From Escherichia coli (GTDB taxonomy: Bacteria > Pseudomonadota > Gammaproteobacteria > Enterobacterales > Enterobacteriaceae): a stretch of 64,000 nt of DNA. Below, one piece after another: positions 11,910-29,251 of the stretch. The notes under the pieces were generated by a model, which did no database searches, was not told where the DNA came from, and saw only the letters and a list, made by a program, of their open reading frames with translations. How positions within the stretch are numbered: position 1 is the stretch's first letter; each line of letters opens with the position of its first letter. Location of the stretch: the NCBI RefSeq assembly GCF_024223415.1, contig NZ_CP100500.1; one strand, written 5' to 3'. Both the position numbers and the translations under genes were made by a program.

Positions 11910-12581
11910 ATGCGCGTACTGGTTGTTGAAGACAATGCGTTGTTACGTCACCACCTTAAAGTTCAGATTCAGGATGCTGGTCATCAGGTCGATGACGCAG
12001 AAGATGCCAAAGAAGCCGATTATTATCTCAATGAACATTTACCGGATATTGCGATTGTCGATCTCGGATTGCCAGACGAGGACGGTCTGTCACTGATTCG
12101 CCGCTGGCGTAGCAATGATGTTTCACTGCCGATTCTGGTATTAACCGCCCGTGAAAGCTGGCAGGACAAAGTCGAAGTATTAAGTGCTGGTGCTGATGAT
12201 TACGTGACTAAACCATTTCATATTGAAGAGGTGATGGCGCGAATGCAGGCATTAATGCGGCGTAATAGCGGTCTGGCTTCACAGGTCATTTCGCTACCAC
12301 CGTTTCAGGTTGATCTCTCTCGCCGTGAATTATCTATTAATGACGAAGTGATCAAACTGACCGCGTTCGAATACACCATTATGGAAACGTTGATACGCAA
12401 TAATGGCAAAGTGGTGAGCAAAGATTCGTTAATGCTCCAACTCTATCCGGATGCGGAGCTGCGGGAAAGCCATACCATTGATGTACTGATGGGACGTCTG
12501 CGCAAAAAAATTCAGGCACAATATCCGCAAGAAGTGATTACTACCGTTCGCGGCCAGGGCTATTTGTTCGAATTGCGCTGA
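11910..12581 (+). CDS. phoP: Response regulator PhoP
   Basis: 223 aa, receiver domain plus winged-helix output domain. Confidence 0.95.
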
Positions 12582-14041
12582 TGAAAAAATTACTGCGTCT
12601 TTTTTTCCCGCTCTCGCTGCGGGTACGTTTTCTGTTGGCAACGGCAGCGGTAGTACTGGTGCTTTCGCTTGCCTACGGAATGGTCGCGCTGATCGGTTAT
12701 AGCGTCAGTTTCGATAAAACTACGTTTCGGCTGTTACGTGGCGAGAGCAATCTGTTCTATACCCTTGCGAAGTGGGAAAACAATAAGTTGCATGTCGAGT
12801 TACCCGAAAATATCGACAAGCAAAGCCCCACCATGACGCTAATTTATGATGAGAACGGGCAGCTTTTATGGGCGCAACGTGACGTGCCCTGGCTGATGAA
12901 GATGATCCAGCCTGACTGGCTGAAATCGAATGGTTTTCATGAAATTGAAGCGGATGTTAACGATACCAGCCTCTTGCTGAGTGGAGATCATTCAATACAG
13001 CAACAGTTGCAGGAAGTGCGGGAAGATGATGACGACGCGGAGATGACCCACTCGGTGGCGGTAAACGTCTACCCGGCAACATCGCGGATGCCAAAGTTAA
13101 CCATTGTGGTGGTGGATACCATTCCGGTGGAGCTAAAAAGTTCCTATATGGTCTGGAGCTGGTTTATCTATGTGCTCTCAGCCAATCTGCTGTTAGTGAT
13201 CCCGCTGCTGTGGGTCGCCGCCTGGTGGAGTTTACGCCCCATCGAAGCCCTGGCAAAAGAAGTCCGCGAACTGGAAGAACATAACCGCGAATTGCTCAAT
13301 CCAGCCACAACGCGAGAACTGACCAGTCTGGTACGAAACCTGAACCGATTGTTAAAAAGCGAACGCGAACGTTACGACAAATACCGTACAACGCTCACCG
13401 ACCTGACCCATAGTCTGAAAACGCCACTGGCGGTGCTGCAAAGTACGCTGCGTTCTCTGCGTAGTGAAAAGATGAGCGTCAGTGATGCTGAACCGGTAAT
13501 GCTGGAGCAAATCAGCCGCATTTCACAGCAAATTGGCTACTACCTGCATCGTGCCAGTATGCGCGGCGGGACATTGCTCAGCCGCGAGCTGCATCCGGTC
13601 GCCCCACTGCTGGACAATCTCACCTCGGCGCTGAACAAAGTGTATCAACGCAAAGGGGTCAATATCTCTCTCGATATTTCGCCAGAGATCAGCTTTGTCG
13701 GTGAGCAGAACGATTTTGTCGAGGTGATGGGCAATGTGCTGGATAATGCCTGTAAATATTGCCTCGAGTTTGTCGAAATTTCTGCAAGGCAAACCGACGA
13801 GCATCTCTATATTGTGGTCGAGGATGATGGACCCGGTATTCCATTAAGCAAGCGAGAGGTCATTTTCGACCGTGGTCAACGGGTTGATACTTTACGCCCT
13901 GGGCAAGGTGTGGGGCTGGCGGTAGCCCGCGAAATCACCGAGCAATATGAGGGTAAAATCGTCGCCGGAGAGAGCATGCTGGGCGGTGCGCGGATGGAGG
14001 TGATTTTTGGTCGCCAGCATTCTGCGCCGAAAGATGAATAA
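12581..14041 (+). CDS. phoQ: Sensor histidine kinase PhoQ
   Basis: 486 aa; start overlaps phoP stop (ATGA); TM-periplasmic-HAMP-HisKA-ATPase layout. Confidence 0.95.
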
Positions 14042-14049
14042 ATATGTCC
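14039..14049. repeat. Left copy of short direct repeat taaatatgtcc overlapping the phoQ stop codon; candidate attL core
   Basis: 10-bp perfect match aaatatgtcc with 29402-29411 (13/15 over tgaataaatatgtcc vs tgataaaatatgtcc). Confidence 0.5.
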
Positions 14050-14121
14050 TTTTATCACCGATATTAGTTAATATATTGATTTAATTAAAAATATACACAA
14101 ACAAAAGTGCCAAAAATCGCA

Positions 14122-14147
14122 AATTAACTACACCATTAACTACACCG
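14122..14147. repeat. Inner 26-bp direct repeat aattaactacaccattaactacaccg, left copy (two tandem 13-mers); alternative att core
   Basis: Exact 26/26 match to 29252-29277; followed on both sides by similar phased repeat arrays. Confidence 0.8.
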
Positions 14148-14163
14148 TTCGGCGCACTGTATG

Positions 14164-14189
14164 AAACAACGTGGAACAAATAGGCACAA
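14164..14189 (+). promoter_or_regulatory. 10-bp-phased NNACAA direct repeats (AAACAA, GAACAA, GCACAA); putative recombinase/RDF or regulator binding array
   Basis: Motifs start at 14164, 14174, 14184; same family as arrays at 21838, 27909 and 29284. Confidence 0.4.
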
Positions 14190-14366
14190 GAAATATAAAG
14201 GCGGGTAATTTTAAGGGGGCGTTGCTGTCGATATGGGGATCCACATAACGGGGCTACCTGGCTTTTTTTCCGGTTAAATGTCAATCAGGCTGGTGGGCTT
14301 TACCTGTTCGGTAGGTGTTATGATTATCGTAATACCTTTCCCCCAATGGGGTAAAAGCATCAACCG

Positions 14367-14911
14367 TAACGAAAGTCGTTATGGTTGCCACCGATACTCC
14401 AAATTTGGGTATCACGAGTAAGCCCCAAAATCTGGGTGTTACTCTTACTACCCAAACTACGGGTAGTTTCCGTAGTTTCATGGTCGAGTTGCAGATCTGC
14501 AACTCCCCCATCAACCACAGGCGAATTTCCGCCTTCGGTCATTCCTTAATCATCTGCGTAATCATAATGATTATTCAGCCAGCTCAATTTTGAGCTTTGC
14601 TTTAAGTTCAGCGAGTTACCGCGCCGACTTCCTCAAATTGAGGTTTCCGAAAATATCAGTGGGTTAGCGATTAAGCAGATGGATAATTAACCTGCGAAAA
14701 TTTCGCAGGTTACATCAGCGACGTAATTCTCGCTGTTCCTGCCCGGAGGTGTCGACGAATTTCGTCGGAACCTAAGCCTGCCGGGAAGTCCGTACGTTAA
14801 ACGTACGGAGTTAATTCGACATCACACACTACGTTGTCAATTTGCAAAGGAGGGGCGGAAATCACCATACCTGCCACCCTGTCATACAGAAAGGGATTAC
14901 GATAATCGTAA
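14367..14911. repeat. Palindrome-dense noncoding block (at least eight perfect or near-perfect inverted repeats of 13-21 bp)
   Basis: Palindromes at 14367-14381, 14454-14478, 14486-14505, 14581-14596, 14631-14643, 14691-14709, 14752-14766, 14789-14809, 14897-14911; no convincing ORF. Confidence 0.6.
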
Positions 14912-14987
14912 CAGGATACAACGCCGCCTGTAATCGTAACCAATTGATTTTTATGATGACGCAAATCTGCGTTATCAGTCCTCAAAG

Positions 14988-15278
14988 TTACCGCCGCAAC
15001 CGTTCCGGCTTCTTCCACTGATAAGTGTTTTTCGCGCTCTCCTGATACATCGCCACGCGTCGACGGTATGCCAGCAACTCTAGTACTCTGATTCGTATGT
15101 CGCGCATATCCACGCCGTTAAGCTCAATACCGTCACGGCGCATCACCTCCGCCACAACACGCACATAATTTTCGGCGGTCACGCTGTCCGGCTGCGTGGC
15201 CTGTTCGTCATGCTGCTGGCTGATTCCGGTAACGCGGCGGATTAATCCCAGTAGTTCGGCTTCGCTCATTCTCGTCAT
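14988..15278 (-). CDS. Hypothetical protein (96 aa) downstream of terL
   Basis: ORF start overlaps the terL stop (translational coupling geometry); no recognisable motif. Confidence 0.4.
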   Translation of the reverse strand: MTRMSEAELLGLIRRVTGISQQHDEQATQPDSVTAENYVRVVAEVMRRDGIELNGVDMRDIRIRVLELLAYRRRVAMYQESAKNTYQWKKPERLRR

Positions 15279-16936
15279 ACCCCATCAAACGCCGCAAGCC
15301 GCTCTTTGTGGCTGTCGCTCATATCGAATGCAAATTCCTCATGCTCTGCCTGGAATGTGCCAAACGCCATCAGCGCCGCAACGCTCGGGTCTATCTTGTT
15401 GGATGATTTTTTCTTGTTCGGCTTGATATTGGCGTTCGCGTCACTCTGCATCACAACATTACTCATTGACCAGGCCAGCACCGGATCACCACGATGCACA
15501 ATCACCTTCCGGTTAACAAAAACTTCGAACGATTTCGCCGCCGGACTGAAACGAAGGTATGTTTGCGGGAACGGCTCCACCTCAAATCCTGCGCCCTGTA
15601 GCTGCGTCATCAGGTGCGTGGCGTTCCATGTATCGAAGCCCACCAGCCGGATATTAAAATTTTCCGCGTCCTTCATGATGTCATCCCTGATACGGTCGTA
15701 ATCAATACAGTCGCCTGGCGTTGTGCGTATCCAGCCCGATTTTGCCCACTGGCGATAGATGGCGCGGTTTTTATTGGCGGGATTCTGTAGCTGCTGCTCC
15801 GGCAGATAATGACGGGAAACCAGCATGATGGTTTTACCAACCGGAAAGGCATAACACACGCTTGAAATATCATTTGTTGATGATAAATCCAGCCCCGCAT
15901 AGCACTCCTGCCCGTGTAAATCTTCCTCCGTGAACGTTCCGGCACACTCAGCCCATGCACCGTTACCCATCCACGGCGTAGCCCCCTGACACCAGATATT
16001 AAAGCGCTTTGTCATCATCTCCACCCACTGCGACGGAATACCCCGCGCTTTCTGGATGGTTGAGGCAAGTTTTTCACGATCGACGGAAACATCGATATTG
16101 GGATTCGCCTTTATCCACATCGCCGGATCGTCAACCTCGCTTTCATCATCCAGCTCGTAAATCATCACGAACATGGATTCATTAACCTCTTCACCATCCA
16201 GTATCTGACAGCAATAATCATAGTGCTGCTTACAGGCAGAAATAACGTTGCTTCCCGATGTGGTAATGGCGAATAACAGCCCGTCAGGACGCGCACCCAT
16301 CCCAAGTTCAAGCGCGGAATATACGCCGTTATCGGGGTGTAAATGGTATTCATCCACAATGGCAAGACTCGGGTTTGTCCCCTCAATGGTCGCCGCCTTT
16401 GCCGCCAGTGGCTTTAACAGGCTGTTGGTTTTCGGGTGTATCACCTTGTGCGCCTGAATATTTACCCGCTTTCGTAACGGTCGGGATAAAAGGCACATCT
16501 GACGCGCATCATCAAACACGATCCGCGCCTGATCACGACTCACGGCGGCGGTGTAAATATCCTGCTGCCCGTTTTCCATAACCAGAAACCAGTTAGCCAG
16601 GATAGCGGCGACCGTGGATTTGGCATTTTTTCGCGGTACTTCAATGAATGCGCTGGTGTATTTGCGCCGTCCGGTGGACTTAACCTTAAAGCCCAGGATG
16701 CACGCAAAGGCGAACTGCTGCCACGGCTCCAGTTCAATGGGGCTACCGCGCATTGCACCTTTTACGTGCGGGCACACCCTGGAAAAGGCAATAAACCGCT
16801 CCACGACCTCCGGATCGAACGTGTAAAGGGGGTTTTCAAGGTCAGAAAAATACCGTTTAACAGCCTGTTTCAGTCGTTTACAGGCCGTAATTTTGCCGTT
16901 TTTTACGCCTTCTGCGTACTCATGCCAGGCGGTCAA
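15275..16936 (-). CDS. terL: Terminase large subunit
   Basis: 553 aa; N-terminal ATPase region with P-loop-like PRKNAKST, C-terminal nuclease-like region; follows terS. Confidence 0.85.
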   Translation of the reverse strand: MTAWHEYAEGVKNGKITACKRLKQAVKRYFSDLENPLYTFDPEVVERFIAFSRVCPHVKGAMRGSPIELEPWQQFAFACILGFKVKSTGRRKYTSAFIEVPRKNAKSTVAAILANWFLVMENGQQDIYTAAVSRDQARIVFDDARQMCLLSRPLRKRVNIQAHKVIHPKTNSLLKPLAAKAATIEGTNPSLAIVDEYHLHPDNGVYSALELGMGARPDGLLFAITTSGSNVISACKQHYDYCCQILDGEEVNESMFVMIYELDDESEVDDPAMWIKANPNIDVSVDREKLASTIQKARGIPSQWVEMMTKRFNIWCQGATPWMGNGAWAECAGTFTEEDLHGQECYAGLDLSSTNDISSVCYAFPVGKTIMLVSRHYLPEQQLQNPANKNRAIYRQWAKSGWIRTTPGDCIDYDRIRDDIMKDAENFNIRLVGFDTWNATHLMTQLQGAGFEVEPFPQTYLRFSPAAKSFEVFVNRKVIVHRGDPVLAWSMSNVVMQSDANANIKPNKKKSSNKIDPSVAALMAFGTFQAEHEEFAFDMSDSHKERLAAFDGV

Positions 16937-17276
16937 GCTCGTCCTCTTCCTCTGTTTCCGGTGGATTTCTGCGTCGGCTTACCGGGTCAAAACCCAGCAA
17001 AGAAGCCATTTTGATCATTATTCTTTCTGCGTCAGCCTTTGCGCTCAGGGCGGGGTTTCTGCTCTCGCTGCCCTGACTGTTAACAATGCTGAACCCGCGC
17101 GTCGCAAGGTCTTCGACGGCTTTGCGGTATAGGGAGTAGTTAACGCAATACAGCTCAAGATTGCTCCAGTCGGCGGGGGTAAGGTCTTCCCGCCCGGAAA
17201 GCTGGCGCGATTTTTCCTTCCATTGCCTGACGGCAATTTCATCCAGGTAAGCGGGGGCTTTTGGTGGTCTTGCCAT
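16920..17276 (-). CDS. terS: Terminase small subunit (P27-family-like)
   Basis: Starts MARPPKAPAYLDEIAVRQWKE...; short basic N-terminus typical of P27-type TerS; overlaps the terL start. Confidence 0.6.
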   Translation of the reverse strand: MARPPKAPAYLDEIAVRQWKEKSRQLSGREDLTPADWSNLELYCVNYSLYRKAVEDLATRGFSIVNSQGSESRNPALSAKADAERIMIKMASLLGFDPVSRRRNPPETEEEDELDRLA

Positions 17277-17321
17277 GTTCTTTTTTCGCCCAATTATTTT
17301 CAAAAAAATTCCCGTGCACAA

Positions 17322-17565
17322 AAATTTGAGCAGGCGGTCGGTTCTGGGCAGGGTCGGGTTCGTCCTGAAAACTCCCCCCCACCCCGTCCGGCTGCCTCAT
17401 CAGCGATTGCGAAAACATTCCATGACCTCGCGGTCACGGTCGGTTAATCGCTTCGCTGTGGTGCGTTTTGTGCGCCCTGTCCTGTTGGCTTTGTGCTCTG
17501 TCTCCTGTGTCTTCCATGTGTCACGCTGCCTTATCAGTCCACGTATCAGCCTGGTTTGCTCCTGT
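17322..17565. other. Candidate cos/packaging site in the HNH-terS intergenic gap
   Basis: 244-bp noncoding gap with G-rich and C-rich tracts (ggcggtcggttctgggcagggtcggg, actcccccccacccc) at the position where HK97-like cos sites lie. Confidence 0.3.
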
Positions 17566-18006
17566 TCAGTCATCATCGCCATACATCCAGTCGTTACGGT
17601 GTGCCGCCCGTTCTTCCTGCTCGCGATACATGCCCGCTTTACGGTTTGCTTTCGTGGCTGGATCTTCCCGTGTGGTCTTACGGTTGTGGCACGTCTGGCA
17701 CAATGCCTGGTGATTCCACTCAGGCCAGAAGAGAACATCATTACCGCCATCGATGGGGATAATGTGATCCACCACCACGGCGGGCGTGTATATTCCTTTT
17801 TCCAGGCAATGCGCACATAACGGGTTTTTACTCAGGTACATAGCGCGGTATTTCTCCCACTGCCTCGTATACCCTCGCTCCCTGCTGCTGCCTCTCCGGC
17901 TGTCCTGCTGCTGGCGTGCGCTGCGTCTGTGCTCCTCACACTTCCCGGACTTCACGCGCCTGTTGCAGCCTGGTTGTGTGCATCGTCTCAATGGTTGCCA
18001 CGGCAT
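17566..18006 (-). CDS. HNH endonuclease (packaging-associated)
   Basis: 146 aa with Cys-His motif (CAHCLEKG...DHIIPIDGGND...ALCQTCHNRKT); sits next to terS as in HK97-like cos phages. Confidence 0.75.
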   Translation of the reverse strand: MPWQPLRRCTQPGCNRRVKSGKCEEHRRSARQQQDSRRGSSRERGYTRQWEKYRAMYLSKNPLCAHCLEKGIYTPAVVVDHIIPIDGGNDVLFWPEWNHQALCQTCHNRKTTREDPATKANRKAGMYREQEERAAHRNDWMYGDDD

Positions 18007-18302
18007 CAGTACACCCCCACATCACGATAAACCGACCAGAGCGCGGAAATCGTCAGGGGAATTTCTTTTGTATCGGTATCGCCAAGCGTTGTCCGGTACT
18101 CGTACAGTTGCGAGATGTACATCAGGCAACCAATTTTTATTGCAGGGGTAAATTCCAGGCCGTCATCAAAACGCCTGCCAATATGCTTCTGGCATACCTC
18201 CAGCGCCGCGCTTATGTATGCCTGAATCAGTGTGTCTTCTGTGTTACCATCTATGCGGCAGTGAAGTTTGGCCTCTTCCAGGGTTATTTTTTCTGCTGTC
18301 AT
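18006..18302 (-). CDS. Head-tail connector protein (gp6-like)
   Basis: 98 aa, MTAEKITLEEAKLHCRIDGNTEDTLIQAYISAALE... typical of phage gp6-like connectors. Confidence 0.55.
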   Translation of the reverse strand: MTAEKITLEEAKLHCRIDGNTEDTLIQAYISAALEVCQKHIGRRFDDGLEFTPAIKIGCLMYISQLYEYRTTLGDTDTKEIPLTISALWSVYRDVGVY

Positions 18303-18637
18303 TTTTCTGTACCCACCTTTGCCAGAATTTCCAGCCGGGTTCTTTTCGCATCAGGTAAGGGGATCCCGATGATATTAAGCGTGCTCCCGGCAAAAGCGCC
18401 GGTAAGCACTTTCAGGCGACTGGCGGCGGATATGTCGCCACGATAGCGAACCCATACCCGAATCGTTGCAGGTGCGGTTTCTGCGCCTGCGGTCAGTAAT
18501 TCCCGTCCGCTGATCCCCTTGACCTCTGCCCAGATGGTTTCCCCTTCCGTCCATATCTGCTGGATCGCACCTGACGGCAGGCGCTGTGTGGTAAATGTCA
18601 TAATCGTCACCCGGTCCCGCATCTTTCCGGCTATCAT
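18299..18637 (-). CDS. Head closure / head-tail adaptor protein
   Basis: 112 aa; size and position (after portal, before HNH) fit the head-tail joining family. Confidence 0.5.
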   Translation of the reverse strand: MIAGKMRDRVTIMTFTTQRLPSGAIQQIWTEGETIWAEVKGISGRELLTAGAETAPATIRVWVRYRGDISAASRLKVLTGAFAGSTLNIIGIPLPDAKRTRLEILAKVGTEK

Positions 18638-19851
18638 TCGTCACCGCCCTTACTGTTCTTGCTGATTGTCACTTCCTGCTTCCATGCCTGGCTGAACTCG
18701 TCGCCACCTTCACGCGGCGGCATTCCCTCACGCTCACGGGCTTCGTTCGGATTGATGATCCCGTTCTTAATCCCTTTCTCATACGTGGCGTAACGTTCGG
18801 TAGGGGTGGCGCGTAATAAATCGGCTGAATCAAACTCAACCAGATAACGGGTACCAGGTACGGGAGAAGCCACCAGCAAAGCAGCCTTGATTTGCTGTTC
18901 GAAGTTCGCCAGCCACGGGCGCATTGTCATGGTCAGAAACGCGCGGCTTGCCTCACTGAAATTGCTGTAGGTGCTGTTGCTGTATTCCTGCAAAAAAATC
19001 GGCGAGACGTTGAACATTCGGGCGATGTCTTCAATGGTAAAGCGACGGGAGGCCAGCCATTCAGCATCCTGATTACTCATGCCCAGCTGCTGATAGCTCA
19101 TACCCCCTTCAAGGATGGGCGTTTTTCCGGCGTTTCTGGCCCCTTTGTAGCGTTCCAGTGCGGCTAATGCCTGTTTGCCCTTCACGCCGTCCAGCCATTC
19201 GCCTGACGTGATAACCCCTGCCGCCATCATGCCATCACGCATCACGCTCGCGCCGTGGCGTTGTTGGGCCAGCCCAAGCCCCAGCGATTCGCGGCAGATG
19301 GTTACAGGTGAGCGCCCCATAAAGCCGTCATCCGTGGAGTAACGAAGGTGGAGAACCTCCCACGGTAAATAGTTGCGGGTGTTTCCGGTGTAGGCGTCAG
19401 TGATGCAGTAGCGCCAGTTATGCTCACCTGTCTGCTCCACGTTCACCGACTGCGGCGGGTAAGGATGTAAAGCCACCGGAAAACCATCACGCCCCCACTG
19501 AATAACCGCATAAGCATTACCGTTTAACAGGCAGTGGCGGATCATCATTCGCTTAAACTGGTAGGGGGTTTGCCATGCGTTCGGGCGCTCGTTGAGGATG
19601 TGATCGACCGGATGAGAATCAAGCCACTCGCGGGCCTCCTTCCCCTTCTCATTGCGTACCAGGTACAGGTAACACGGCATGGTAGCCACCGCCTCAGAGA
19701 TGACCGTCACGGCGTTCATGACGGCGGGCAGTGATTCCGCTGTCCCCGATGATACGTACTCACCCGCCCCCGTGTTCGATGTGCCCGCCAGCGCCATAAA
19801 TTCATCAAGCGTCATGCTGCGCTGCTCTTTTTTTCTTCTGAAAAGCCACAT
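18634..19851 (-). CDS. Portal protein (HK97 family-like)
   Basis: 405 aa; position between protease and connectors; composition typical of HK97-type portal. Confidence 0.8.
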   Translation of the reverse strand: MWLFRRKKEQRSMTLDEFMALAGTSNTGAGEYVSSGTAESLPAVMNAVTVISEAVATMPCYLYLVRNEKGKEAREWLDSHPVDHILNERPNAWQTPYQFKRMMIRHCLLNGNAYAVIQWGRDGFPVALHPYPPQSVNVEQTGEHNWRYCITDAYTGNTRNYLPWEVLHLRYSTDDGFMGRSPVTICRESLGLGLAQQRHGASVMRDGMMAAGVITSGEWLDGVKGKQALAALERYKGARNAGKTPILEGGMSYQQLGMSNQDAEWLASRRFTIEDIARMFNVSPIFLQEYSNSTYSNFSEASRAFLTMTMRPWLANFEQQIKAALLVASPVPGTRYLVEFDSADLLRATPTERYATYEKGIKNGIINPNEAREREGMPPREGGDEFSQAWKQEVTISKNSKGGDE

Positions 19852-19852
19852 A

Positions 19853-20425
19853 TCACACCCCCGCTAAATCCACCCACCAGCGGCGATTATCCGCACGCGG
19901 CATTTTTTCGGGGTGCTGCTCATACAGGGAACGGCGGGCCAGCTCCACGCCGGAATCGGGGTAAGCCGGTACCGATGTAACGGTAATTTCGTACAGTTCC
20001 GCCACCAGCACGGTACGAACGCATGGATCTGTTGTGGTATCCCATACATCCTTACGGGAGCGAAAGCCAAAGCTCATGCCGGATATATCACCGCGTTTAA
20101 CCAGTTCGATAACGTCGCGCCCTGTACTGGTATCCGGTGGGGTCAGTTCAAAGCGTAACCCTGTTTCGTCCTCTTCCAGTTTCAGCGTGCCGGAACGGGT
20201 GCGCCCCAGTAACATGCTGTGGTCATGCTCATACAGGCCGCGAACGTCATTACCCGCCGCAAGCCATTCAGTAAACGCCCCCCGCTGGAATTTTTCGTAA
20301 AACTCACCCCATAACAGTTCTGAAAGCTTATCCCAGCGAACAACGTAGCCCGTCAGCGTACCGGCTCCGCTCGTGGTGATTTCCGATGACCGGATTTCCA
20401 TACTCTTCATAATTTTTTCACCCAT
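19853..20425 (-). CDS. Prohead maturation protease (HK97 gp4-like)
   Basis: 190 aa immediately downstream of the capsid gene. Confidence 0.75.
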   Translation of the reverse strand: MGEKIMKSMEIRSSEITTSGAGTLTGYVVRWDKLSELLWGEFYEKFQRGAFTEWLAAGNDVRGLYEHDHSMLLGRTRSGTLKLEEDETGLRFELTPPDTSTGRDVIELVKRGDISGMSFGFRSRKDVWDTTTDPCVRTVLVAELYEITVTSVPAYPDSGVELARRSLYEQHPEKMPRADNRRWWVDLAGV

Positions 20426-20464
20426 AAAACACTAAAGGGGCTTTTAAGCCCCTTCTGTATGCTG

Positions 20465-21622
20465 TTAATCGTCGTCCTGTGGCAGTTCCAGAATCTTGAT
20501 CGCGTTCGAATCCACCACGCCACCGCCTAAATATTTCTGCGTGAAAATTTTGATGAAGCCCGGCTCTGTGATGTTGTCCGGTCTGGTGCGAACACCTGTT
20601 TCGTGATCAACAATGTAGTAACCGCGTTTGAAGTCACCCAGGGCAATAACGTTATCAGGCATAAACTCCAGATATTCGACCGGAAGGCCCAGCAACGTAT
20701 CAGGATCACCCGCCTGTAAACGGTCGCGCCAGATGTAATCACCGTTCGCGTTCTTCACCTTCTGAAGTTTTGCCGCCGTTGTGGAGTTAACCACCCATAC
20801 CGCGTTCTTGCGGTATTTTTTACGCAATGCAAATTTCAGGTCGATCAGCGGGTCCGCAGATGTCCACGCCAGACCGTGAGCGGGCTTGATAACCTGCAAC
20901 GTTCCGAAGTCGCGTTCTTTGTCGCTCTTCTCTGCACGGGGGACGGATAAAAAGCCTTTTGCTTTTTTGTCACCGTCGCCCACAACCAGATCGCTTTCTT
21001 CGGTTTCCGTGAAGGTGTCGCCAATCTCGGCCGTCAGCCATGAAAGGATGTCCACATCGGAAAAATCCACGATTTCCTGTGTGGTGCGCGGGTACGCATA
21101 GACCGGATACAGCTTAATGCTCACCTCGTTAATCTGCGGGGTGCTGGTCTGTTCGCGTGCCTTACCCTCTTCACCGTGGTTAACGGTCGCACCGCCAGCG
21201 GAAACAAGCTGCTTAAACTCGTTGCTGCTGATTTTCTTCACGGTACAGATGCGGCGCATGGTGGATTCATCCGCCAGCATTCGCATGATTTCGGTGTTCA
21301 GTTCGGGGATAACGGTATAACCACCATCAGCGGGAACGCCTGTACTTAATGCGCGGGTTTCACCTGTCAGAATGTAGTTGCGTAGTTCTGCGGGGTCAGT
21401 GGTCTGACTGCTTTTACCTGGCTTGCTGCGCTCTTCGTCTGCAATGGCTTCAAGGCGGGAAATGTCTTTATCGAGGGATTCAGCTTTAGCGCGTAATTCA
21501 TCAAATTTTGCGCCCTCAGCATCGTTAAGACTGCGGTTTTCTTTTTCCGCGTTCTCCAGCATGTCGCGCATCTGATTTTTAATGGCGGTTTTCTGCTGGC
21601 GTAATTCGATTATTCTCGGCAT
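20465..21622 (-). CDS. Major capsid protein, HK97 fold, with N-terminal coiled-coil scaffold (delta) domain
   Basis: ATG at 21622 gives MPRIIELRQQKTAIKNQMRDMLENAE... (delta domain) then capsid body; the longer ORF to 21667 would read through a terminator hairpin. Confidence 0.85.
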   Translation of the reverse strand: MPRIIELRQQKTAIKNQMRDMLENAEKENRSLNDAEGAKFDELRAKAESLDKDISRLEAIADEERSKPGKSSQTTDPAELRNYILTGETRALSTGVPADGGYTVIPELNTEIMRMLADESTMRRICTVKKISSNEFKQLVSAGGATVNHGEEGKAREQTSTPQINEVSIKLYPVYAYPRTTQEIVDFSDVDILSWLTAEIGDTFTETEESDLVVGDGDKKAKGFLSVPRAEKSDKERDFGTLQVIKPAHGLAWTSADPLIDLKFALRKKYRKNAVWVVNSTTAAKLQKVKNANGDYIWRDRLQAGDPDTLLGLPVEYLEFMPDNVIALGDFKRGYYIVDHETGVRTRPDNITEPGFIKIFTQKYLGGGVVDSNAIKILELPQDDD

Positions 21623-21660
21623 AAAAAAAAGTCCTGGGGTTAAGTAAGGAACTCCAGGAC
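21623..21660 (-). terminator. Intrinsic terminator on the minus strand directly abutting the capsid start codon
   Basis: Minus strand reads gtcctgg-(16 nt)-ccaggac followed by TTTTTTTT, then ATG of the capsid gene. Confidence 0.45.
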
Positions 21661-21837
21661 GCGGCAAAAACTCAACCGTTTTTCATAAGGAAATCAGCAA
21701 TCGCACCGATCGTTTTCCCGCCTGGTAATGAATATTGGCGAGCACATTAACAGGCGGGAAAGTGGCCCCAGCGTCCTGGCACCACGGGCGAGAATAATCA
21801 TGATTCAGTTCGAGTAAAATATGCCGATCCGCTCAGT

Positions 21838-21896
21838 GAACAACCTGGAACAACCACGAACAAATAATTTACAAAACCTGAAAAAATAAATAAACT
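21838..21896 (+). promoter_or_regulatory. Promoter of the 157-aa gene with phased upstream repeats: GAACAA x3 at 10-bp spacing, then -35 TTTACA, 17-bp spacer, -10 TAAACT
   Basis: GAACAA at 21838, 21848, 21858; TTTACA 21868-21873; TAAACT 21891-21896; AGGAGG SD at 21924 and ATG at 21938. Confidence 0.45.
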
Positions 21897-21937
21897 GTTC
21901 CGTACATTTTCTGCTCGTTAATCAGGAGGAACGAACT

Positions 21938-22411
21938 ATGTCAGAAAATGAACTGAAAAAAGCAATGTTCATTCAGCAACGATTGCAGATTCTCCACCTT
22001 GGTAAACACTATGATGAGTTCAGTGATTCTTACGTGTATGCCTGGGAGGCAGATGTTTATCCTTTCTTGCAGGATGGCGACGGAAGTATTCCTGCTCGCC
22101 CACATGAAATTTACGAAGAGTTTTTCGGCACATCTAAAAACAAAGCCAAAAAGATATACGATCGTCTGTGCAAAGCCTGGCACGACCAGGAGGCACTCAC
22201 ATTCTATAAACTAGAAAGTGAATATGGTGTAACAAGTAGCAGCATGCACAGATGGACACGAAGTGATTTACTTCACATCTGCCGCTATCTGTATCTTGAG
22301 GGGTGTTTCGATAAAGATTTCTGGGAAACATTACTGGAAAACGGAAAATGCCCAAGCGAAGCACTTTACCTTAGCGATGAATTTAATCGCGATACAGAGA
22401 TCGACTTCTAA
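21938..22411 (+). CDS. Hypothetical protein (157 aa), stand-alone opposite-strand cargo gene
   Basis: Strong SD and promoter, own bidirectional terminator; only plus-strand gene inside the structural/regulatory part of the island; no recognisable domain. Confidence 0.65.
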   Translation: MSENELKKAMFIQQRLQILHLGKHYDEFSDSYVYAWEADVYPFLQDGDGSIPARPHEIYEEFFGTSKNKAKKIYDRLCKAWHDQEALTFYKLESEYGVTSSSMHRWTRSDLLHICRYLYLEGCFDKDFWETLLENGKCPSEALYLSDEFNRDTEIDF

Positions 22412-22448
22412 AAAAATGGCCTGGAAAATACCAGGCCATTATTATTCT
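22411..22448. terminator. Bidirectional intrinsic terminator between convergent genes
   Basis: atggcctgg-aaaata-ccaggccat flanked by an A-run on one side and T-rich sequence on the other. Confidence 0.55.
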
Positions 22449-22695
22449 ACCGTTTCACGGGATCACGCATTCTGCGCCTTATTTTCCACAGATATTCGAT
22501 CATCGCTTCCACCTGCTCACGGTTGGTTGCGAAAATTTCCCCGGTCAGTGAGCTACGCAGAAAATCATGATGATCCACAAAAAATAACGCATCGGAAGAA
22601 AGCAGCCGGAGATATTTTTTTGCTGTCGTGCTTTCCAGATCATCAAAATCATGAAGCTTTTTATGTTGCTGGACTTCTTCAAATGTCACTGGCAT
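22447..22695 (-). CDS. Hypothetical protein (about 82 aa)
   Basis: Internal ATG (MPVTFEEVQQHKKLHDF...) downstream of the PerC-like gene. Confidence 0.45.
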   Translation of the reverse strand: MPVTFEEVQQHKKLHDFDDLESTTAKKYLRLLSSDALFFVDHHDFLRSSLTGEIFATNREQVEAMIEYLWKIRRRMRDPVKR

Positions 22696-22740
22696 GTTTC
22701 CTCCTGCTACCACGATACCAGAAACAGTTAACAACCGTTA

Positions 22741-23022
22741 TCAATTATCCCCTTTTTTAGGGTAGTTCCTGAACATCTCACCGCCAGGCTTCTGTAAGCC
22801 CATCCCGGTATGTGTGCGGTTTATGGCCTCTTTCAGTATTCCGAAATTATCCGGTATGACTGGTGGGCGTGCTGCCTTACGGATACATTCCGCGCGACGC
22901 TTTGCCACTTGTTCGCGCTCCTTGTCAGTGCTCACCAGCCACATAACATCAGCCCATCGCGCGGCCGCCCTCCGGTAAAATCCTTTCGCCTCCAGTTCCT
23001 CCGCTATCCGGTCATGTACCAT
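22741..23022 (-). CDS. PerC-family-like transcriptional regulator (tentative)
   Basis: About 93 aa from internal ATG: MVHDRIAEELEAKGFYRRAAARWADVMW...; the EAxGxxRRAAxxW motif resembles PerC-type activators. Confidence 0.4.
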   Translation of the reverse strand: MVHDRIAEELEAKGFYRRAAARWADVMWLVSTDKEREQVAKRRAECIRKAARPPVIPDNFGILKEAINRTHTGMGLQKPGGEMFRNYPKKGDN

Positions 23023-23032
23023 CGTCACCCCC

Positions 23033-23443
23033 TCAGAACGGAATATCATCACCGTAAGGGTCATCGCCTCCCGCTGGTGGCTGATTACCCTGTGTGCCTG
23101 TGGTTTTGCGTCTGTTCCCACCAGGACGTGCCGCACGCGCACTGATTACGCTGTCTGCGATAACCTGCCAGCCCTGCCGCGTTTCCCCGTTCTGTCCGGT
23201 CCACTGGCTGACCTGCATCGTGCCGGATACGCTGGCAACGTCGCCTTTTTGATGTTTAGCCAGAAAGTCGGCCTGTTTGCCAAATGCGATGACCGATAAC
23301 CATAACGTCGCCTGTCCGTCCTGTGCCTGGCCGCATGGTAAAGATACCGCCATACGCGCCAGCGTCATCGGTGTACCCTTACTGGTCTGTTTTACCTGCG
23401 GGTCGTCCACCAGCCGCCCGTAAGCTGCAATTTGTGCTGTCAT
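23033..23443 (-). CDS. ssb: Single-stranded DNA-binding protein
   Basis: 136 aa with OB-fold-like core and acidic C-terminal tail ending DDIPF. Confidence 0.85.
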   Translation of the reverse strand: MTAQIAAYGRLVDDPQVKQTSKGTPMTLARMAVSLPCGQAQDGQATLWLSVIAFGKQADFLAKHQKGDVASVSGTMQVSQWTGQNGETRQGWQVIADSVISARAARPGGNRRKTTGTQGNQPPAGGDDPYGDDIPF

Positions 23444-23452
23444 ATTGCCACC

Positions 23453-23758
23453 TCAGTGAAGCGATCCGGCGTTGTTCTTTTTCATCTCTTCCATCATTTT
23501 TTCAGTGAGCATTACGCACTGAAAACCCATGTTTTTGATGTCTACGGGTTTCATGCCTTTGTCAGTGGATATCACAGGCAGAATATCCTGATACACATCG
23601 CCGCCAGGGTAACTAAGCACACAAAGCGCCCATGATGCCACGGGTGAGGATCCTTGGTCTGTTTCAACCCACCAGCCTGGTGTAGCTGCGCTTATTTGCA
23701 GAATCGTGATCCGTCCGTTGTGCTTGTAAAATTTTTCACCACATTTTGGTTCGCTCAT
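23453..23758 (-). CDS. Hypothetical protein (101 aa)
   Basis: ORF in operon context between ssb and the ori region. Confidence 0.4.
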   Translation of the reverse strand: MSEPKCGEKFYKHNGRITILQISAATPGWWVETDQGSSPVASWALCVLSYPGGDVYQDILPVISTDKGMKPVDIKNMGFQCVMLTEKMMEEMKKNNAGSLH

Positions 23759-24006
23759 GCTTCCACCTCTCCGGTTTTAACGTTGATGGTTGTCACCTGT
23801 TCCGCTCCGGCAATCTCCCGTTCTGTCAGCGTGGCAAAATTTGCCGCTACCGTTGTCATGAATGCGCTTATCAGTTCGGGATGTGCTTTCGCGTATCCTT
23901 CTCCCGCGTGGCGGTCTATCGTTCTGATTGCCACCTTTAAGGCGTGCTCTGTCATGTCTAACGCTTTATATTTTGGCGCTGTCTTATCTCTGGTTTTTCT
24001 GTTCAT
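23755..24006 (-). CDS. Hypothetical protein (start uncertain)
   Basis: ORF 23755-24036 trimmed to an internal ATG because its 5' end runs into the iteron array. Confidence 0.3.
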   Translation of the reverse strand: MNRKTRDKTAPKYKALDMTEHALKVAIRTIDRHAGEGYAKAHPELISAFMTTVAANFATLTEREIAGAEQVTTINVKTGEVEA

Positions 24007-24225
24007 TCCCCACCACTCCCCACTTTTGCTCCCCACTTTTTAAATTCCCCACTTGCTCCCCACCTCGTTTTTTGAGTGAATCTAATGCTTTGTTTTTCAT
24101 TGCGTTTTTTGCTCCCCACTTTTTTGGATGTATACAGGTGGGAAAGTGGGGAATTATGTTTCAATTTTGTTAAATTCCCCACTCTCCCCACTTTTACTAC
24201 CCACTTTTTACAGTGGGTAAACATC
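24005..24225. repeat. Iteron array (at least 8 copies of tccccactttt-like units in both orientations around an AT-rich core); putative replication origin
   Basis: Repeats ctccccactttt, gctccccacttttt, attccccact and inverted gtgggaaagtgggg, immediately 3' of the primase/helicase gene. Confidence 0.6.
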
Positions 24226-25614
24226 ATCCCCATCGACACAAATCACGCCGTCTTTTTCCAGCTTGTACAGCCAGCGCCGGAAGTGCTTCATCTCATACCC
24301 CAGCTTTTTCATATCGTCGCGGAGAAGGGCGATAGTGCATGGCTCTTTGTGTGCCGTCCGCGTTCTGATGCACTGCCATAGCGCGGCGTGATTCTCCGAT
24401 TTGTTGCCTGCTTCCTCGATGCGCTCCAGTTCAGCAGGGGCGCGGGGAACGTCAATCACCACCATAGACACAATCTCTTCGCCATCTGTATCGGTGAACA
24501 CCTCCACGCTTTTAAGGTCGTATGCACTCTCTTTTGGCTCCTCTGCGTCCTTCATCTTCGTACACGCCGCCACCAGTGCTGTAACGTCTGAATTTTCCCG
24601 GCTGATTCGGTACTCTGCATCAAGCGCGGCACGGAATGCGCTGGAACCACGCGCCCCCTTTGTTTCATCCTTGCCGGAATGGTGAACCACCAGCACCGTG
24701 GCCCCTGTGGCCTGCTTTATCGCGTCACACCCCTGGATAAATGCGCCCATATCACGGGAATCATTTTCATCATTCCCACCAAAGCAACGGGCCAGTGTGT
24801 CGATCACAATCAGCCGCACATTTTCGCCCGTTCTGCTCTTAACAAGTCCGGCAGTCCTGATAACCTGCTCCACATAGTCAGGCGATGCAGGGAAAACAGG
24901 CGCGTTAATGATGCACAAATCTGTAACCACCTTGTCGTGGGTTATCTCCCACGCCTTAACGCGGCGTTTTACGCCCATGCTGCCTTCACCAGCGATATAG
25001 ATAACCGCCCCCTTACTTACCCTGCGGCCTCCCCATGCCATACCTGTGGCAACATGGCACGACCAGGAAATGGCGAGGAACGATTTATAAGAACCGCTGG
25101 CCCCGTAGGTGCTGCATAATGACTCAGCCGGAATAAGCCCCTTAATTACGTAGCTTTGCTGCGCGTCGAATCCCTCAGAACCCCATGAGATGGGAAGCGT
25201 GATTTTTCGCTTTCCGCCATTCATGACCAGGCTTTCCCCTCTCTCCCATGTTTCCCGTAGTCGTGGTAGCTGGTCGCTCCAGTCCTCCAGCAGTTCGAAA
25301 TTTTCAGAAAGTAGCCGCGCCTCCTGGACTCCGGCGATCGCCAGTTTTGTGGCAATGGTCAGCATCTGCATATCGTCCAGGTTTCCGGCGCGTATGACCT
25401 TTGCCCTGTATCGTCCTTCATCAACAATCTGTAAGTTGTCCAGTTCGCTTAACTGATAACGGCCCAGGTAAACCGGAGGGATGGGATCGCCTGCTTTTTT
25501 GGCCTGTGCAATCATGTAATGTTCTGCAAAGGAGTGAGCATTATCACCCGCAAAAATAACCGCCTCAGTGTGTTTATCTTTCGGTAACAGTTTTACGTTC
25601 GGTGCAAGTTTCAT
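24208..25614 (-). CDS. Replication protein: primase-like N-terminus plus RecA/DnaB-like AAA ATPase (pri-rep)
   Basis: 468 aa; Walker A-like IYIAGEGSMGVKRR and Walker B-like LIVIDTLARCFG, C-terminal winged-helix-like tail. Confidence 0.75.
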   Translation of the reverse strand: MKLAPNVKLLPKDKHTEAVIFAGDNAHSFAEHYMIAQAKKAGDPIPPVYLGRYQLSELDNLQIVDEGRYRAKVIRAGNLDDMQMLTIATKLAIAGVQEARLLSENFELLEDWSDQLPRLRETWERGESLVMNGGKRKITLPISWGSEGFDAQQSYVIKGLIPAESLCSTYGASGSYKSFLAISWSCHVATGMAWGGRRVSKGAVIYIAGEGSMGVKRRVKAWEITHDKVVTDLCIINAPVFPASPDYVEQVIRTAGLVKSRTGENVRLIVIDTLARCFGGNDENDSRDMGAFIQGCDAIKQATGATVLVVHHSGKDETKGARGSSAFRAALDAEYRISRENSDVTALVAACTKMKDAEEPKESAYDLKSVEVFTDTDGEEIVSMVVIDVPRAPAELERIEEAGNKSENHAALWQCIRTRTAHKEPCTIALLRDDMKKLGYEMKHFRRWLYKLEKDGVICVDGDDVYPL

Positions 25615-25898
25615 TTCTTACCCCCTGCGACCAGCATTTCACGGATTTTGCGGATATAACTTGCAGCACGTTTCTGATTAACGGCTTTACGATGGCCCAC
25701 CAGCGTGAAATCACGCCGGAACTGATAAACAGGCATAACGCAGTCATATTCGTAGCCTTCACGGCGGTAAGTTACGCGACGTTCCTCCACGCTTTTAATT
25801 GTTACCGTGCCGCCGTAGTTATCTTTGAAAATATCGCCGGGGCGGATTTCAGGCCGAGCGGGGCCGCTGGCAGTAAAGCCAGAATATTTAAGTTTCAT
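25611..25898 (-). CDS. Hypothetical protein (95 aa)
   Basis: Stop overlaps the pri-rep start; basic protein. Confidence 0.4.
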   Translation of the reverse strand: MKLKYSGFTASGPARPEIRPGDIFKDNYGGTVTIKSVEERRVTYRREGYEYDCVMPVYQFRRDFTLVGHRKAVNQKRAASYIRKIREMLVAGGKK

Positions 25899-25903
25899 TA
25901 TTT

Positions 25904-26137
25904 TTATTCTCCGGTGTGCTGTTCTTTATATCTGTCGTGCAATAGGTCTATTTCCTGCAACTCTGTTATTACAGGTTCAAGGAGAGTTATCAGAGATTTA
26001 ATAATCCGCGCATTCTTTACATCACGCTCATTATCGCCAAATGTATCTGGATACATTTGCAATATTTCGTACATACCTTCAGCGTAAGCAATGGCACTAA
26101 ATGCGCGGTCTATTGTTTCGAGGTAAATATCACGCAT
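25904..26137 (-). CDS. Hypothetical protein (77 aa)
   Basis: Compactly spaced ORF in the same operon. Confidence 0.4.
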   Translation of the reverse strand: MRDIYLETIDRAFSAIAYAEGMYEILQMYPDTFGDNERDVKNARIIKSLITLLEPVITELQEIDLLHDRYKEQHTGE

Positions 26138-26138
26138 A

Positions 26139-26387
26139 TTAATCCCCGTCCGTCGTTTTTCTTAAAATAACCTCTGTCACGAAATCAGCATAATCGGCGG
26201 CGATATTCAGTACATCAAGCCCCGTTGATTTATATTCTCTCGTGGAAAGTAAGAAAAAAGCCGCTCTAATAAGCTCTGGCATTGACGAAAGCGCATCAGC
26301 CGCATCATCAGGAACGCCGGAAAATTCCTGTTTCAGGGAATTAAAACGATCATCACGCATAACCCCCCCCATTTTCACAATCAGCAA
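26139..26387 (-). CDS. Hypothetical protein (82 aa)
   Basis: Compactly spaced ORF in the same operon. Confidence 0.35.
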   Translation of the reverse strand: MLIVKMGGVMRDDRFNSLKQEFSGVPDDAADALSSMPELIRAAFFLLSTREYKSTGLDVLNIAADYADFVTEVILRKTTDGD

Positions 26388-26634
26388 TCAGGATGGCTTT
26401 GGCCTCATTCAGTGCCATATCAGCGGTAAGCTGTGCGTAGGCCAGCAAATGCGGGATTATTGCCCCTGTATATTCCGTCTCTCTGGTAATGTGTTTTTCT
26501 GCGGTTGCTGCCGTGCATGAAATATCAATCAGCGCGTGCATCAGCGTTTTGATGGCTTCGGCGGCTGCGTCCGGACGGGTGTTATTGCACATGGCACACC
26601 TCCTGACGGATACGGGCGGCGAATACAGCGACAC
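26353..26634 (-). CDS. Hypothetical protein (start uncertain)
   Basis: ORF overlapping its neighbours; probable start at an internal ATG. Confidence 0.3.
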   Translation of the reverse strand: MSLYSPPVSVRRCAMCNNTRPDAAAEAIKTLMHALIDISCTAATAEKHITRETEYTGAIIPHLLAYAQLTADMALNEAKAILIADCENGGGYA

Positions 26635-26780
26635 AACCGGACGGGCAACGGTTACGCGCTTCGCGTTCCGTCCAGGCGGTCACGTGGATAATTTGAGATT
26701 CTCCGGCACTCAGTGCCAGAAAACGCCACACAAAGGCGGTTTGTGTGTGCGCTAGTCGTGGGGTATGCTGTGTTCCAGCC
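26582..26780 (-). CDS. Hypothetical small protein (about 66 aa), first gene of the leftward early operon
   Basis: C-terminal part of spurious 267-aa ORF, from ATG near 26780: MAGTQHTPRLAHTQTAFVWRF...; divergent from the RHH gene. Confidence 0.35.
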
Positions 26781-26867
26781 ATAATCGTTACTCCTGTTAA
26801 CGGTTTGGTTAGACGCCCTGCATGTGTTACAGCACTGCGGGGCGTTGTCTTTTTAACGGCTTTCGTG

Positions 26868-26917
26868 ATAGGGTGTACACCTATCAAGCAAAAAAATAAC
26901 GCTATAGGTGTACACAT
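26868..26917. promoter_or_regulatory. Two operator-like palindromes centred on GTGTACAC in the divergent regulatory region
   Basis: atagggtgtacacctat (26868-26884) and tataggtgtacacat (26903-26917); the second overlaps the RHH start codon. Confidence 0.45.
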
Positions 26918-29248: not shown

Positions 29249-29251
29249 CAC

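Follow-up and report, generated by a model that had tools for sequence, protein, structure and literature searches.

The crossover site of a capsid-forming phage satellite next to phoQ in Escherichia coli and its putative integrase and AlpA sites

The window, a 64,000-nt stretch of Escherichia coli contig NZ_CP100500.1 that we analysed as a whole, carries next to phoQ a 15,362-bp (~15.4-kb) capsid-forming PICI (cf-PICI), a phage satellite. Its insertion point lies one base past the stop codon of phoQ, in the ycfD(roxA)–phoQ site that the prototype Gram-negative satellite EcCICFT073 also uses. The size, with one core copy counted, was derived from the spacing of a short outer repeat, AAATATGTCC, which is the crossover site and the sole sequence common to attL, attR and the empty attB. 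Nested within it are longer repeats that belong to the element and combine two distinct kinds of site: tandem 12-mers, which on sequence and analogy are probably integrase arm-type sites, and ACAA repeats phased at 10 bp, which on similar grounds are probably sites for the excisionase and activator AlpA. We consider this overall model, with an outer-repeat core, 12-mers for integrase and ACAA arrays for AlpA, to be likely. The element adds another capsid-forming satellite to those at a known site, with a nested-repeat layout ordinary for such elements.

The island and its flanking genes are as follows.
12581–14041, plus strand: phoQ, intact ORF with stop TAA at 14039–14041, carrying the phoQ annotation wherever it matches an E. 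coli genome.
14050–29404: cf-PICI body, delimited by ORFs, profile hits and repeat spacing.
27438–27626, minus strand: alpA (62 aa), Pfam PF05930, E 5.6e-18, of the Phage_AlpA family of excisionases/transcriptional regulators.
28001–29251, minus strand: int, a P4-type tyrosine integrase, with start GTG 29251, or ATG 29230 as annotated in relatives.
29470–30600, plus strand: roxA (ycfD), intact ORF.

The cf-PICI body encodes TerL, TerS, HNH, adaptor, head closure, portal, protease and capsid, as well as SSB, a RepA-type helicase, an Icd-like protein, AlpA and Int. PHROGs and NCBIfam profiles identified the capsid-forming module set (capsid, protease, portal, connectors, HNH, TerS and TerL), and tail and lysis genes were neither found in the element nor annotated in a 96.5%-identical relative. 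The int gene, alpA and the replication module are co-directional, and the size fits the Gram-negative PICI range of ~10–15 kb. Int contains arm-binding (Arm-DNA-bind_3, E 4.5e-17), core-binding (Phage_int_M, E 1.2e-3) and catalytic (Phage_integrase, E 9.5e-17) domains, which together with the identity block and inverted half-sites described below are among the features of a complex (lambda-type) att site. The PHROG annotation of alpA is ‘excisionase and transcriptional regulator’. Against a phage collection, the element's matches were limited to partial and distant ones in head genes. The phoQ–roxA site is occupied in about 11% of complete E. coli genomes, and CFT073 carries its PICI there. 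At the four occupied sites inspected individually, phoQ–roxA is an attachment site of PICIs rather than prophages, all four (4/4) holding PICI-type elements. No tRNA gene was found in the window, and tRNA-targeting insertion was therefore rejected.

An earlier note on this DNA had favoured the outer repeat as recombination core and had set alignment with an island-free locus as the test beforehand. The repeat is exact at 14040–14049 and 29402–29411. Strain SC423, whose locus lacks the island, has ...GATGAATAAATATGTCCATACTTCACGC... there, exactly as predicted for an outer-repeat core, so we identify AAATATGTCC as the crossover site; the empty site contains one copy of this 10-mer and zero copies of the inner module. 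The ~75-bp phoQ–roxA spacer expected after removal of the element was also found, with phoQ ending at 402 and roxA beginning at 478 in the empty locus L001. In island-free genomes, sampled evenly across the match ranking, the left-flank match stops at 14046–14049 and the right-flank match begins at 29402. Since these matches end and start at the 10-mer, segments 14050–14121 and 29278–29399 and the inner 26-bp repeat belong to the element and are missing from empty sites, which bears out the suspicion that the DNA between outer and inner repeats is element-like. The published att core of EcCICFT073 at ycfD–phoQ, GGACATATTT, is the reverse complement of AAATATGTCC (PMC6092414). The crossover-site question is settled, and its answer was already in the literature.

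At base level, the two junctions are made up as follows.
14036–14042: bacterial half-site GAATAAA, on the attL side.
14040–14049: attL identity block AAATATGTCC, with a predicted 7-bp overlap TATGTCC at 14043–14049.
14050–14056: element-side core half-site C′, TTTTATC, read from the sequence as a perfect inverted repeat of GATAAAA at 29398–29404.
29398–29411: attR, with half-site C GATAAAA (29398–29404) and overlap TATGTCC (29405–29411); identity block 29402–29411.

In the rebuilt attP core (GATAAAA-TATGTCC-TTTTATC), perfectly inverted half-sites flank the 7-bp overlap, which is the likely strand-exchange region; in the relative L002, the identity between attL and attR shrinks to TATGTCC. Five other att types share this inverted half-site layout, as does one observed attP. 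The identity block differs in sequence but not in position in relatives at tqsA, smrA/abgR, yifB, clpS/cspD and thiM/rcnR, and each of these blocks lies between (G/T)A(T/G)AAA(A/T) and an A/T-rich partner. The earlier note had proposed that integration regenerates the phoQ stop codon. As the likely exchange region begins one base past TAA, we infer instead that phoQ keeps its own stop, of which the identity block covers just the last two bases.

The attP junction of the excised circle would read ...CACTAATTGATAAAATATGTCCTTTTATCACCGATATTAG.... Exact searches for this phoQ-type junction gave zero matches in viral contigs and six in metagenome contigs, all of them chance matches to unrelated AT-rich coding sequence without PICI arms; most IMG/VR proviral contigs have been cut at the start codon of int and lack the arm. 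A metagenomic 11.1-kb contig (L048) holds the intact attP of a tqsA-type sibling, whose junction is exactly as predicted and whose core has one 12-mer pair to either side. Among complete relatives, the nearest (96.5% identity over 93% of the element) likewise sits in tqsA, not phoQ, and the window integrase is 90% identical to the tqsA-type integrase.

The inner repeat is an exact 26-mer, AATTAACTACACCATTAACTACACCG, at 14122–14147 and 29252–29277. It consists of a flanking base, two 12-mers ATTAACTACACC and a further flanking base, so that the tandem unit is 12 bp and not the 13 bp previously proposed. Beyond it, the imperfect similarity noted before extends to a 75-nt direct repeat with 79% identity (family D1). 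Exact copies of ATTAACTACACC occur at 14123–14134, 14135–14146, 29253–29264 and 29265–29276, in the two arms only.
14123–14146, plus strand: P′ arm 12-mer pair ATTAACTACACC, beginning 73 bp past the overlap; candidate arm-type sites for the integrase.
29253–29276, plus strand: P arm 12-mer pair ATTAACTACACC, directly upstream of the int start and ending 128 bp before the overlap.
14069–14081, minus strand: IHF-consensus match AATCAATATATTA (read as WATCAANNNNTTR on the minus strand), tentatively an IHF site, in P′ arm block ATTGATTTAATTAAA.
The block ATTGATTTAATTAAA is conserved in the P′ arm alignment of relatives.

The arm-site reading of the inner modules draws on the arm-binding domain of the integrase, on fixed distances across six cores and on the sibling attP with a module on each side. 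Relatives using six different targets have 12-mer pairs in their arms at conserved distances from the core: on one side they follow the overlap by 72–73 bp (also in L011), and on the other they precede it by 128–130 bp. The 12-mer sequence shifts with the integrase N-domain: ACTGACCACACA is the variant in both arms of L011, AGTGACTACACC accompanies a VKYLTSG variant of the N-domain and TTTAGTTATACG is the counterpart in the unrelated proL lineage. The far-arm variant agrees with the integrase type in L004 and L011 and disagrees in L003 and L008, L003 being a mosaic with a type-B integrase and a type-A far arm. The P-arm 12-mers lie less than 25 bp from the int start, so their co-variation with the N-domain could reflect linkage rather than co-evolution. 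The earlier idea that the inner modules are element-internal arm-type sites thus holds as to element DNA and fits the arm layout, with two kinds of site in each module.

The second kind, the phased ACAA repeat, is enriched in the window: Markov-1 simulations predicted 0.06 runs of at least three ACAA at 9–11 bp spacing and five were found, and an ACAA pattern search gave 9 matches against 1.8 expected. Arrays stand at both island ends, as first described, and two more lie inside the element.
14164–14189, plus strand: P′ arm array, three (R)AACAA at 10-bp phasing, proposed AlpA sites.
21838–21874, plus strand: internal array of 3–4 ACAA repeats, intergenic, upstream of the capsid operon; kept in capsid-forming relatives (L003, L004, L011).
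27907–27952, minus strand: alpA-upstream array of five ACAA phased at 10 bp, oriented with alpA and lying in the gap that separates it from the int stop.
29286–29319, plus strand: P arm array of four ACAA phased at 10 bp, with the 12-mers on one side and the core on the other.
29366–29380, plus strand: core-proximal GAAAC pair, 10 bp apart; relatives have CGAACA repeats at the same position.

Arrays in both arms and upstream of alpA were present in 11/11 relatives examined; the capsid-forming members of this set also have the capsid-operon array. The orientation of that array is opposite to the operon's, a point against the overall model. About 280 bp separate the alpA-upstream array from alpA, and the DNA there is AT-rich. 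AlpA activates PalpA-lacZ of EcCICFT073 (PMC6092414), and the responsive fragment includes the equivalent array and no 12-mer. Binding to direct repeats spaced by one helical turn is typical of directionality factors, which can regulate promoters too (PMC7498355). The proL lineage, whose AlpA is unrelated, has CACCGGA as its phased repeat, again in the arm and directly upstream of alpA. Within the present lineage co-variation is weak, since AlpA variants at 55–60% identity use a near-identical AACAA core. We see about an even chance that phased ACAA is the AlpA operator at four places, serving excision in both att arms, autoactivation at its own gene and packaging at the capsid operon. If so, the cis-elements of the master regulator of Gram-negative PICIs would be mapped for the first time, and the coupling of excision and induction would be explained; the same logic predicts CACCGGA as the operator of the proL lineage. 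Scans of the P arm, P′ arm and alpA-upstream region for promoters and terminators gave nothing over shuffle expectation, and the int and alpA promoters were not placed. Replication iterons were rejected as an explanation of the ACAA arrays; separate CCCCAC-containing repeats lie directly downstream of the helicase gene (23997–24210).

The 26-mer is the longest exact repeat bracketing the island, and the original PICI table gives the same 26-mer as ‘att site core’ of EcCIDI14. On that basis it could itself be the crossover core, as the earlier note had allowed, with the DNA between inner and outer repeats being chromosomal. The empty sites, which lack both the 26-mer and the two intervening segments, refute this, and we give it practically no credence. 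In EcCIDI14, moreover, it is the outer junction, ~73 and ~128 bp outside the 26-mers, that borders the interrupted ISEc45 transposase gene, and in the sibling attP (L048) the two modules flank a separate core. Because empty or interrupted sites place the junction elsewhere, the inner modules are mislabelled as “att cores” in that table for the EcCIDI14 and yejM-luxR groups. Choosing the longest flanking repeat, as happened there, shifts island boundaries by ~75–130 bp, and the right arms and cores matter for engineering islands as delivery vehicles and for mapping targets. The mosaic structure of elements at the phoQ site, exemplified by L003, would also allow the inner modules to be non-functional leftovers, for instance of tandem-island recombination. 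This is very improbable, as module order and spacing are kept across six target specificities, down to 62–70% integrase identity, despite diverged surrounding arm sequence.

Both motif classes occur in both arms, so the assignments might be swapped, with ACAA serving the integrase and the 12-mers binding AlpA or another factor. Consistent with this, and against the assignment of the P-arm arrays to AlpA, an EcCICFT073 Pint-lacZ fusion gave no response to AlpA (PMC6092414), and its fragment, mapped approximately, spans the whole P arm with its arrays. We nevertheless regard a swap as distinctly improbable: ACAA arrays are also found upstream of alpA and the capsid operon, far from att; the AlpA-responsive fragment has an array and no 12-mer; the 12-mers vary with the integrase N-domain; and phasing by the helical turn is typical of directionality factors (PMC7498355). 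It is somewhat less improbable, though still unlikely, that the arrays bind a factor other than AlpA (the helper-phage inducer of alpA, an island protein or a host nucleoid protein) and that only the 12-mers act in recombination. Helper phages switch on alpA transcription through an inducer (PMC6092414), and the distance of the array from alpA and its AT-rich surroundings would suit such a protein. Against it, AlpA alone activates the array-containing PalpA fragment, the motif becomes CACCGGA with an unrelated AlpA, contrary to a shared host factor, and directionality factors act between arm-type sites and core, where the P-arm array sits.

In the overall model, strand exchange would occur in the 7-bp TATGTCC between the inverted core-type half-sites. 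The P4-type integrase would dock on the 12-mers through its N-terminal arm-binding domain, and the four copies would serve an integrase tetramer bridging the arms to the core. AlpA, as recombination directionality factor, would bind the phased ACAA cooperatively beside the 12-mers, and from the copies of this repeat that precede alpA and the capsid operon it would activate transcription. A single protein would thereby couple excision to induction. A base-level attP model is now at hand for a widespread satellite family, and a candidate AlpA operator is defined and testable.

P2 Int/Cox and P4 Int/Vis combine a complex attP with a heterobivalent integrase and a dual-purpose directionality factor. 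At sequence level, and with arm-site binding predicted, the rebuilt attP of the window element resembles the complex attP of lambda Int/Xis, 186 Int/Apl and KplE1 IntS/TorI (PMC7498355, PMC2951348) as well as that of the P2 and P4 systems. Shared features are a 7-bp overlap enclosed by inverted half-sites, distinct repeated sequences in each arm, direct repeats phased at 10–11 bp in an arm and at promoters, and an int gene that abuts the arm so that its upstream region overlaps att sites. Among satellites, EcCICFT073 (Fillol-Salom et al. 2018, PMC6092414) has the same site and 10-bp core, an alpA-int-arm region 89% identical and an AlpA protein 95% identical to those of the window element, and the same 12-mers and ACAA arrays. 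Its integrase function and circularisation were demonstrated experimentally (PMC6092414); the arm sites, inverted core half-sites and alpA-upstream array are absent from its description (PMC6092414). It has capsid-redirection genes where the window element has a full capsid and terminase module. EcCIEDL933-like cf-PICIs (Alqurainy et al., bioRxiv 10.1101/2022.09.08.507074) are ~15.4 kb with the same gene set; the window element is a different copy from EcCIEDL933, at one of several att sites of the family; the preprint lists six attB sites (bioRxiv 10.1101/2022.09.08.507074). Helper-phage-dependent induction and transfer were shown for relatives (PMC6092414; bioRxiv 10.1101/2022.09.08.507074). 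Unlike the complex attP systems, the window element has its entire 75-bp module of 12-mer pair and array in both arms, as a direct duplication, and its AlpA belongs to a protein reported to activate, in contrast to the repressors Apl and Cox.

Both repeat pairs at the island ends are as the earlier note described them. The outer repeat AAATATGTCC has exact copies at 14040-14049 and 29402-29411 (repeat-finder family D14, start-to-start spacing 15,362 in the window), and the phoQ stop TAA occupies 14039-14041. The inner pair (family D1) is a 75-nt direct repeat with 79% identity, its first 26 nt exact. The note favoured the outer repeat as the recombination core and the inner modules as element-internal, with a 26-mer core as the alternative. 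With each junction as query, a search of 5,426 complete E. coli genomes gave junction-spanning matches in about 583-599 of them (11%). In all island-free genomes among rows sampled evenly across the ranking, the left-query match stopped at 14046-14049 and the right-query match began at 29402. The empty locus of strain SC423 reads GATGAATAAATATGTCCATACTTCACGC, letter by letter the site predicted for an outer-repeat core; its left and right matches share exactly the 10-mer, and the phoQ–roxA spacer is 75 bp, as short as anticipated. The 26-mer and the segments 14050-14121 and 29278-29399, whose native presence in an island-free locus was named as the observation against an outer core, are absent from the empty sites (junction search; SC423 locus), which excludes the inner-core alternative. 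The outer repeat is the crossover site.

The CFT073 satellite EcCICFT073, the prototype Gram-negative phage-inducible chromosomal island (PICI), sits at the same phoQ–roxA site (Fillol-Salom et al. 2018, PMC6092414). Its published att core, GGACATATTT at ycfD-phoQ (Table S1, PMC6092414), is the reverse complement of the outer repeat, and its circularisation and int-attP-dependent integration were shown experimentally (PMC6092414). Neither the crossover site nor the type of element is new. The 15,362-bp island carries the following genes:

TerL, P27-type TerS, HNH endonuclease
head-tail adaptor, head closure protein, portal, prohead protease, major capsid protein
SSB, RepA-type helicase, Icd-like protein
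AlpA (PF05930)
P4-type integrase with Arm-DNA-bind_3, Phage_int_M and Phage_integrase domains

A 96.5%-identical relative has the same genes annotated, with neither tail nor lysis genes. This gene content matches the definition of a capsid-forming PICI given for EcCIEDL933 (Alqurainy et al., bioRxiv 10.1101/2022.09.08.507074).

When the right and left ends are joined, they rebuild an attP core, GATAAAA-TATGTCC-TTTTATC, in which a 7-bp spacer separates the halves of a perfect 7-bp inverted repeat:

29398-29404, C half-site GATAAAA
29405-29411 = 14043-14049, overlap TATGTCC
14050-14056, C' half-site TTTTATC

As read from its sequence, the rebuilt core has the classical layout, an overlap region between two core-type half-sites. 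Three lines of evidence support a 7-bp window. In ECCNB12-2 (L002) the attR copy is AAGTATGTCC, so that attL/attR identity shrinks to TATGTCC. Relatives with 62-97% identical integrases use five other targets, where the identity block differs while its position is the same and the half-sites are similar.

Core half-sites and overlaps at the five other targets
tqsA: C GATAAAA, overlap TGCTGTT, C' ATATATA
smrA/abgR: C TATAAAA, overlap TCACGAT, C' ATTTATA
yifB: C TATAAAA, overlap ATCCGCT, C' ATTTATA
clpS/cspD: C GATAAAT, overlap AACTATC, C' ATTTATA
thiM/rcnR: C GAGAAAA, overlap TACGGGT, C' ATTTCTT

Finally, L048, an 11.1-kb metagenome-derived viral contig, holds an intact tqsA-type attP whose junction GATAAAATGCTGTTATATATAAC is exactly that predicted from RM10042 attR and attL (275 of 297 shared positions identical to the RM10042-derived attP). 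Because the predicted overlap starts one base past the TAA, phoQ retains its native stop, and the proposal that integration regenerates it is only loosely true. Two IMG/VR contigs (L034 and L036) have TATGCCC in place of TATGTCC at phoQ–roxA, as read from attR alone. In another (L045), P arm and core are of the tqsA type (GATAAAATGCTGTTAT) but adjoin a non-tqsA flank, TGATTCACGGCCTGG...; the site is either a secondary one or belongs to a different host species.

The same ambiguity between core and inner module recurs in the literature. The "att site core" listed for EcCIDI14 is the reverse complement of the 26-mer, and that of the yejM-luxR PICI group is a tandem 12-mer module (Table S1, PMC6092414). 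We compared these entries with NZ_CP009072.1 (L018), K-12 (L019) and NC_017652.1 (L020). In clone D i14 the island splits an ISEc45 transposase gene; the outer junction (TATAAAA-TCAC...), where the gene fragments join the island, is ~128 and 73 bp beyond the 26-mers. The ATCC 25922 island joins the chromosome at the tRNA-Pro 3' end, and the 12-mers are absent from the K-12 empty site of that target. The true junctions lie ~75-130 bp outside the listed modules; in both entries an arm module was mistaken for the core. The NmCIFF6 entry (TTTGGTAACACGTTTAGTAACAC) looks like another such listing.

The 26-mer does contain tandem units, of 12 bp rather than the 13 first reported: ATTAACTACACC starts at 14123, 14135, 29253 and 29265, and exact copies are confined to the two arms. 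In every relative the int-proximal pair lies 20-40 bp upstream of the int start and ends 128-130 bp ahead of the overlap; the far-end pair begins 72-73 bp past it. The 12-mer sequence varies with the integrase N-terminal domain.

12-mers and integrase N-domains
ATTAACTACACC: ...VRHSTSGLL...
AGTGACTACACC: ...VKYLTSG(K/I)L... (L003, L004, L008, L036)
ACTGACCACACA, both arms: 62%-identical N-domain of L011 (unrelated to L007)
TTTAGTTATACG: unrelated proL-targeting lineage

The relatives L007 and L008 have near-identical core-binding and catalytic domains but differ in N-domains and int-proximal 12-mers, and L036 combines a type-B N-domain and type-B 12-mers with the phoQ site, so the N-domain, along with its 12-mers, moves independently of core specificity. 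Physical linkage could account for this co-variation, as the int-proximal pair sits beside the int 5' end; in the far arm, 12-mer and integrase type agree in L004 and L011 and disagree in L003 and L008. Two pairs make four sites, which suits an integrase tetramer. On these sequence patterns, the tandem 12-mers are probably integrase arm-type sites. The P' arm also holds a conserved block, ATTGATTTAATTAAA, with a full IHF consensus (14069-14081, minus strand), and a P-arm block, AATCAAAAACATAATG, is nearly invariant among relatives; as sites, both are inferred at consensus level. The arm architecture is probably that of an ordinary complex attP, previously undescribed for this family.

The phased ACAA motifs reported beside the 26-mers are real (9 pattern-search hits against 1.8 expected). 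Five runs of three or more phased motifs occur in the window, where simulated sequence predicts 0.06; four lie in the element, two of them far from its ends:

21838-21874, plus strand, internal ACAA run
27907-27952, minus strand, internal ACAA run

All 11 relatives examined have arrays of 3-6 repeats in both arms and another between the int stop and alpA, in alpA orientation; capsid-forming elements have a further array upstream of the capsid operon. The P-arm array lies between the 12-mers and the core, with a second short pair of repeats 20-40 bp from the core. We located published reporter fragments by placing their primers on CFT073 (L005). The PalpA-lacZ fragment activated by AlpA (pJP2038; Fillol-Salom et al. 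2018, PMC6092414) spans 14140-14595 there and includes a six-repeat array at 14482-14535. In the proL lineage (EcCIATCC25922), AlpA is unrelated and the phased repeat is CACCGGA, with three copies beside the core, two farther out in the arm and two immediately ahead of the alpA start codon; the motif differs and the dual location is retained.

A directionality factor can use its repeats at promoters as well, as P2 Cox does. Such factors typically bind direct repeats one helical turn apart, and 186 Apl likewise uses the same repeats at promoters (PMC7498355); in KplE1 the int upstream region overlaps arm and directionality-factor sites (PMC2951348). We lean, narrowly, towards AlpA binding the ACAA arrays as candidate sites. 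This reading is weakened by the Pint-lacZ fusion, which does not respond to AlpA (PMC6092414) and whose fragment (L005 15253-16100, approximate mapping) contains the whole P arm. If confirmed, the AlpA-operator reading would be the sole new part of this analysis.

A 157-aa ORF (21938-22411, plus strand), opposite in strand to the rest of the island, lies 64 bp downstream of the internal ACAA array at 21838-21874. It has no NCBIfam or PHROGs match, is present in L003 and absent from L004 and L011, and may be an accessory gene. A 267-aa ORF (26582-27385, minus strand) has a match to the Icd-like cell-division inhibitor family over its final 44 residues only, the first ~215 having no family match. 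Directly downstream of the RepA-type helicase gene, CCCCAC-containing repeats at 23997-24210 comprise three copies of TTTTGCTCCCCACTTTTT ~84 bp apart and a 46-nt pair 168 bp apart, and are probably the island's replication origin. A non-coding stretch of ~800 bp (14200-14990) at the end away from int, conserved among relatives, carries a 25-nt inverted repeat (14316-14340 and 14889-14913, 92% complementary) as well as a GGGGATCC(A/C)C palindrome, and may be the packaging (cos) region.
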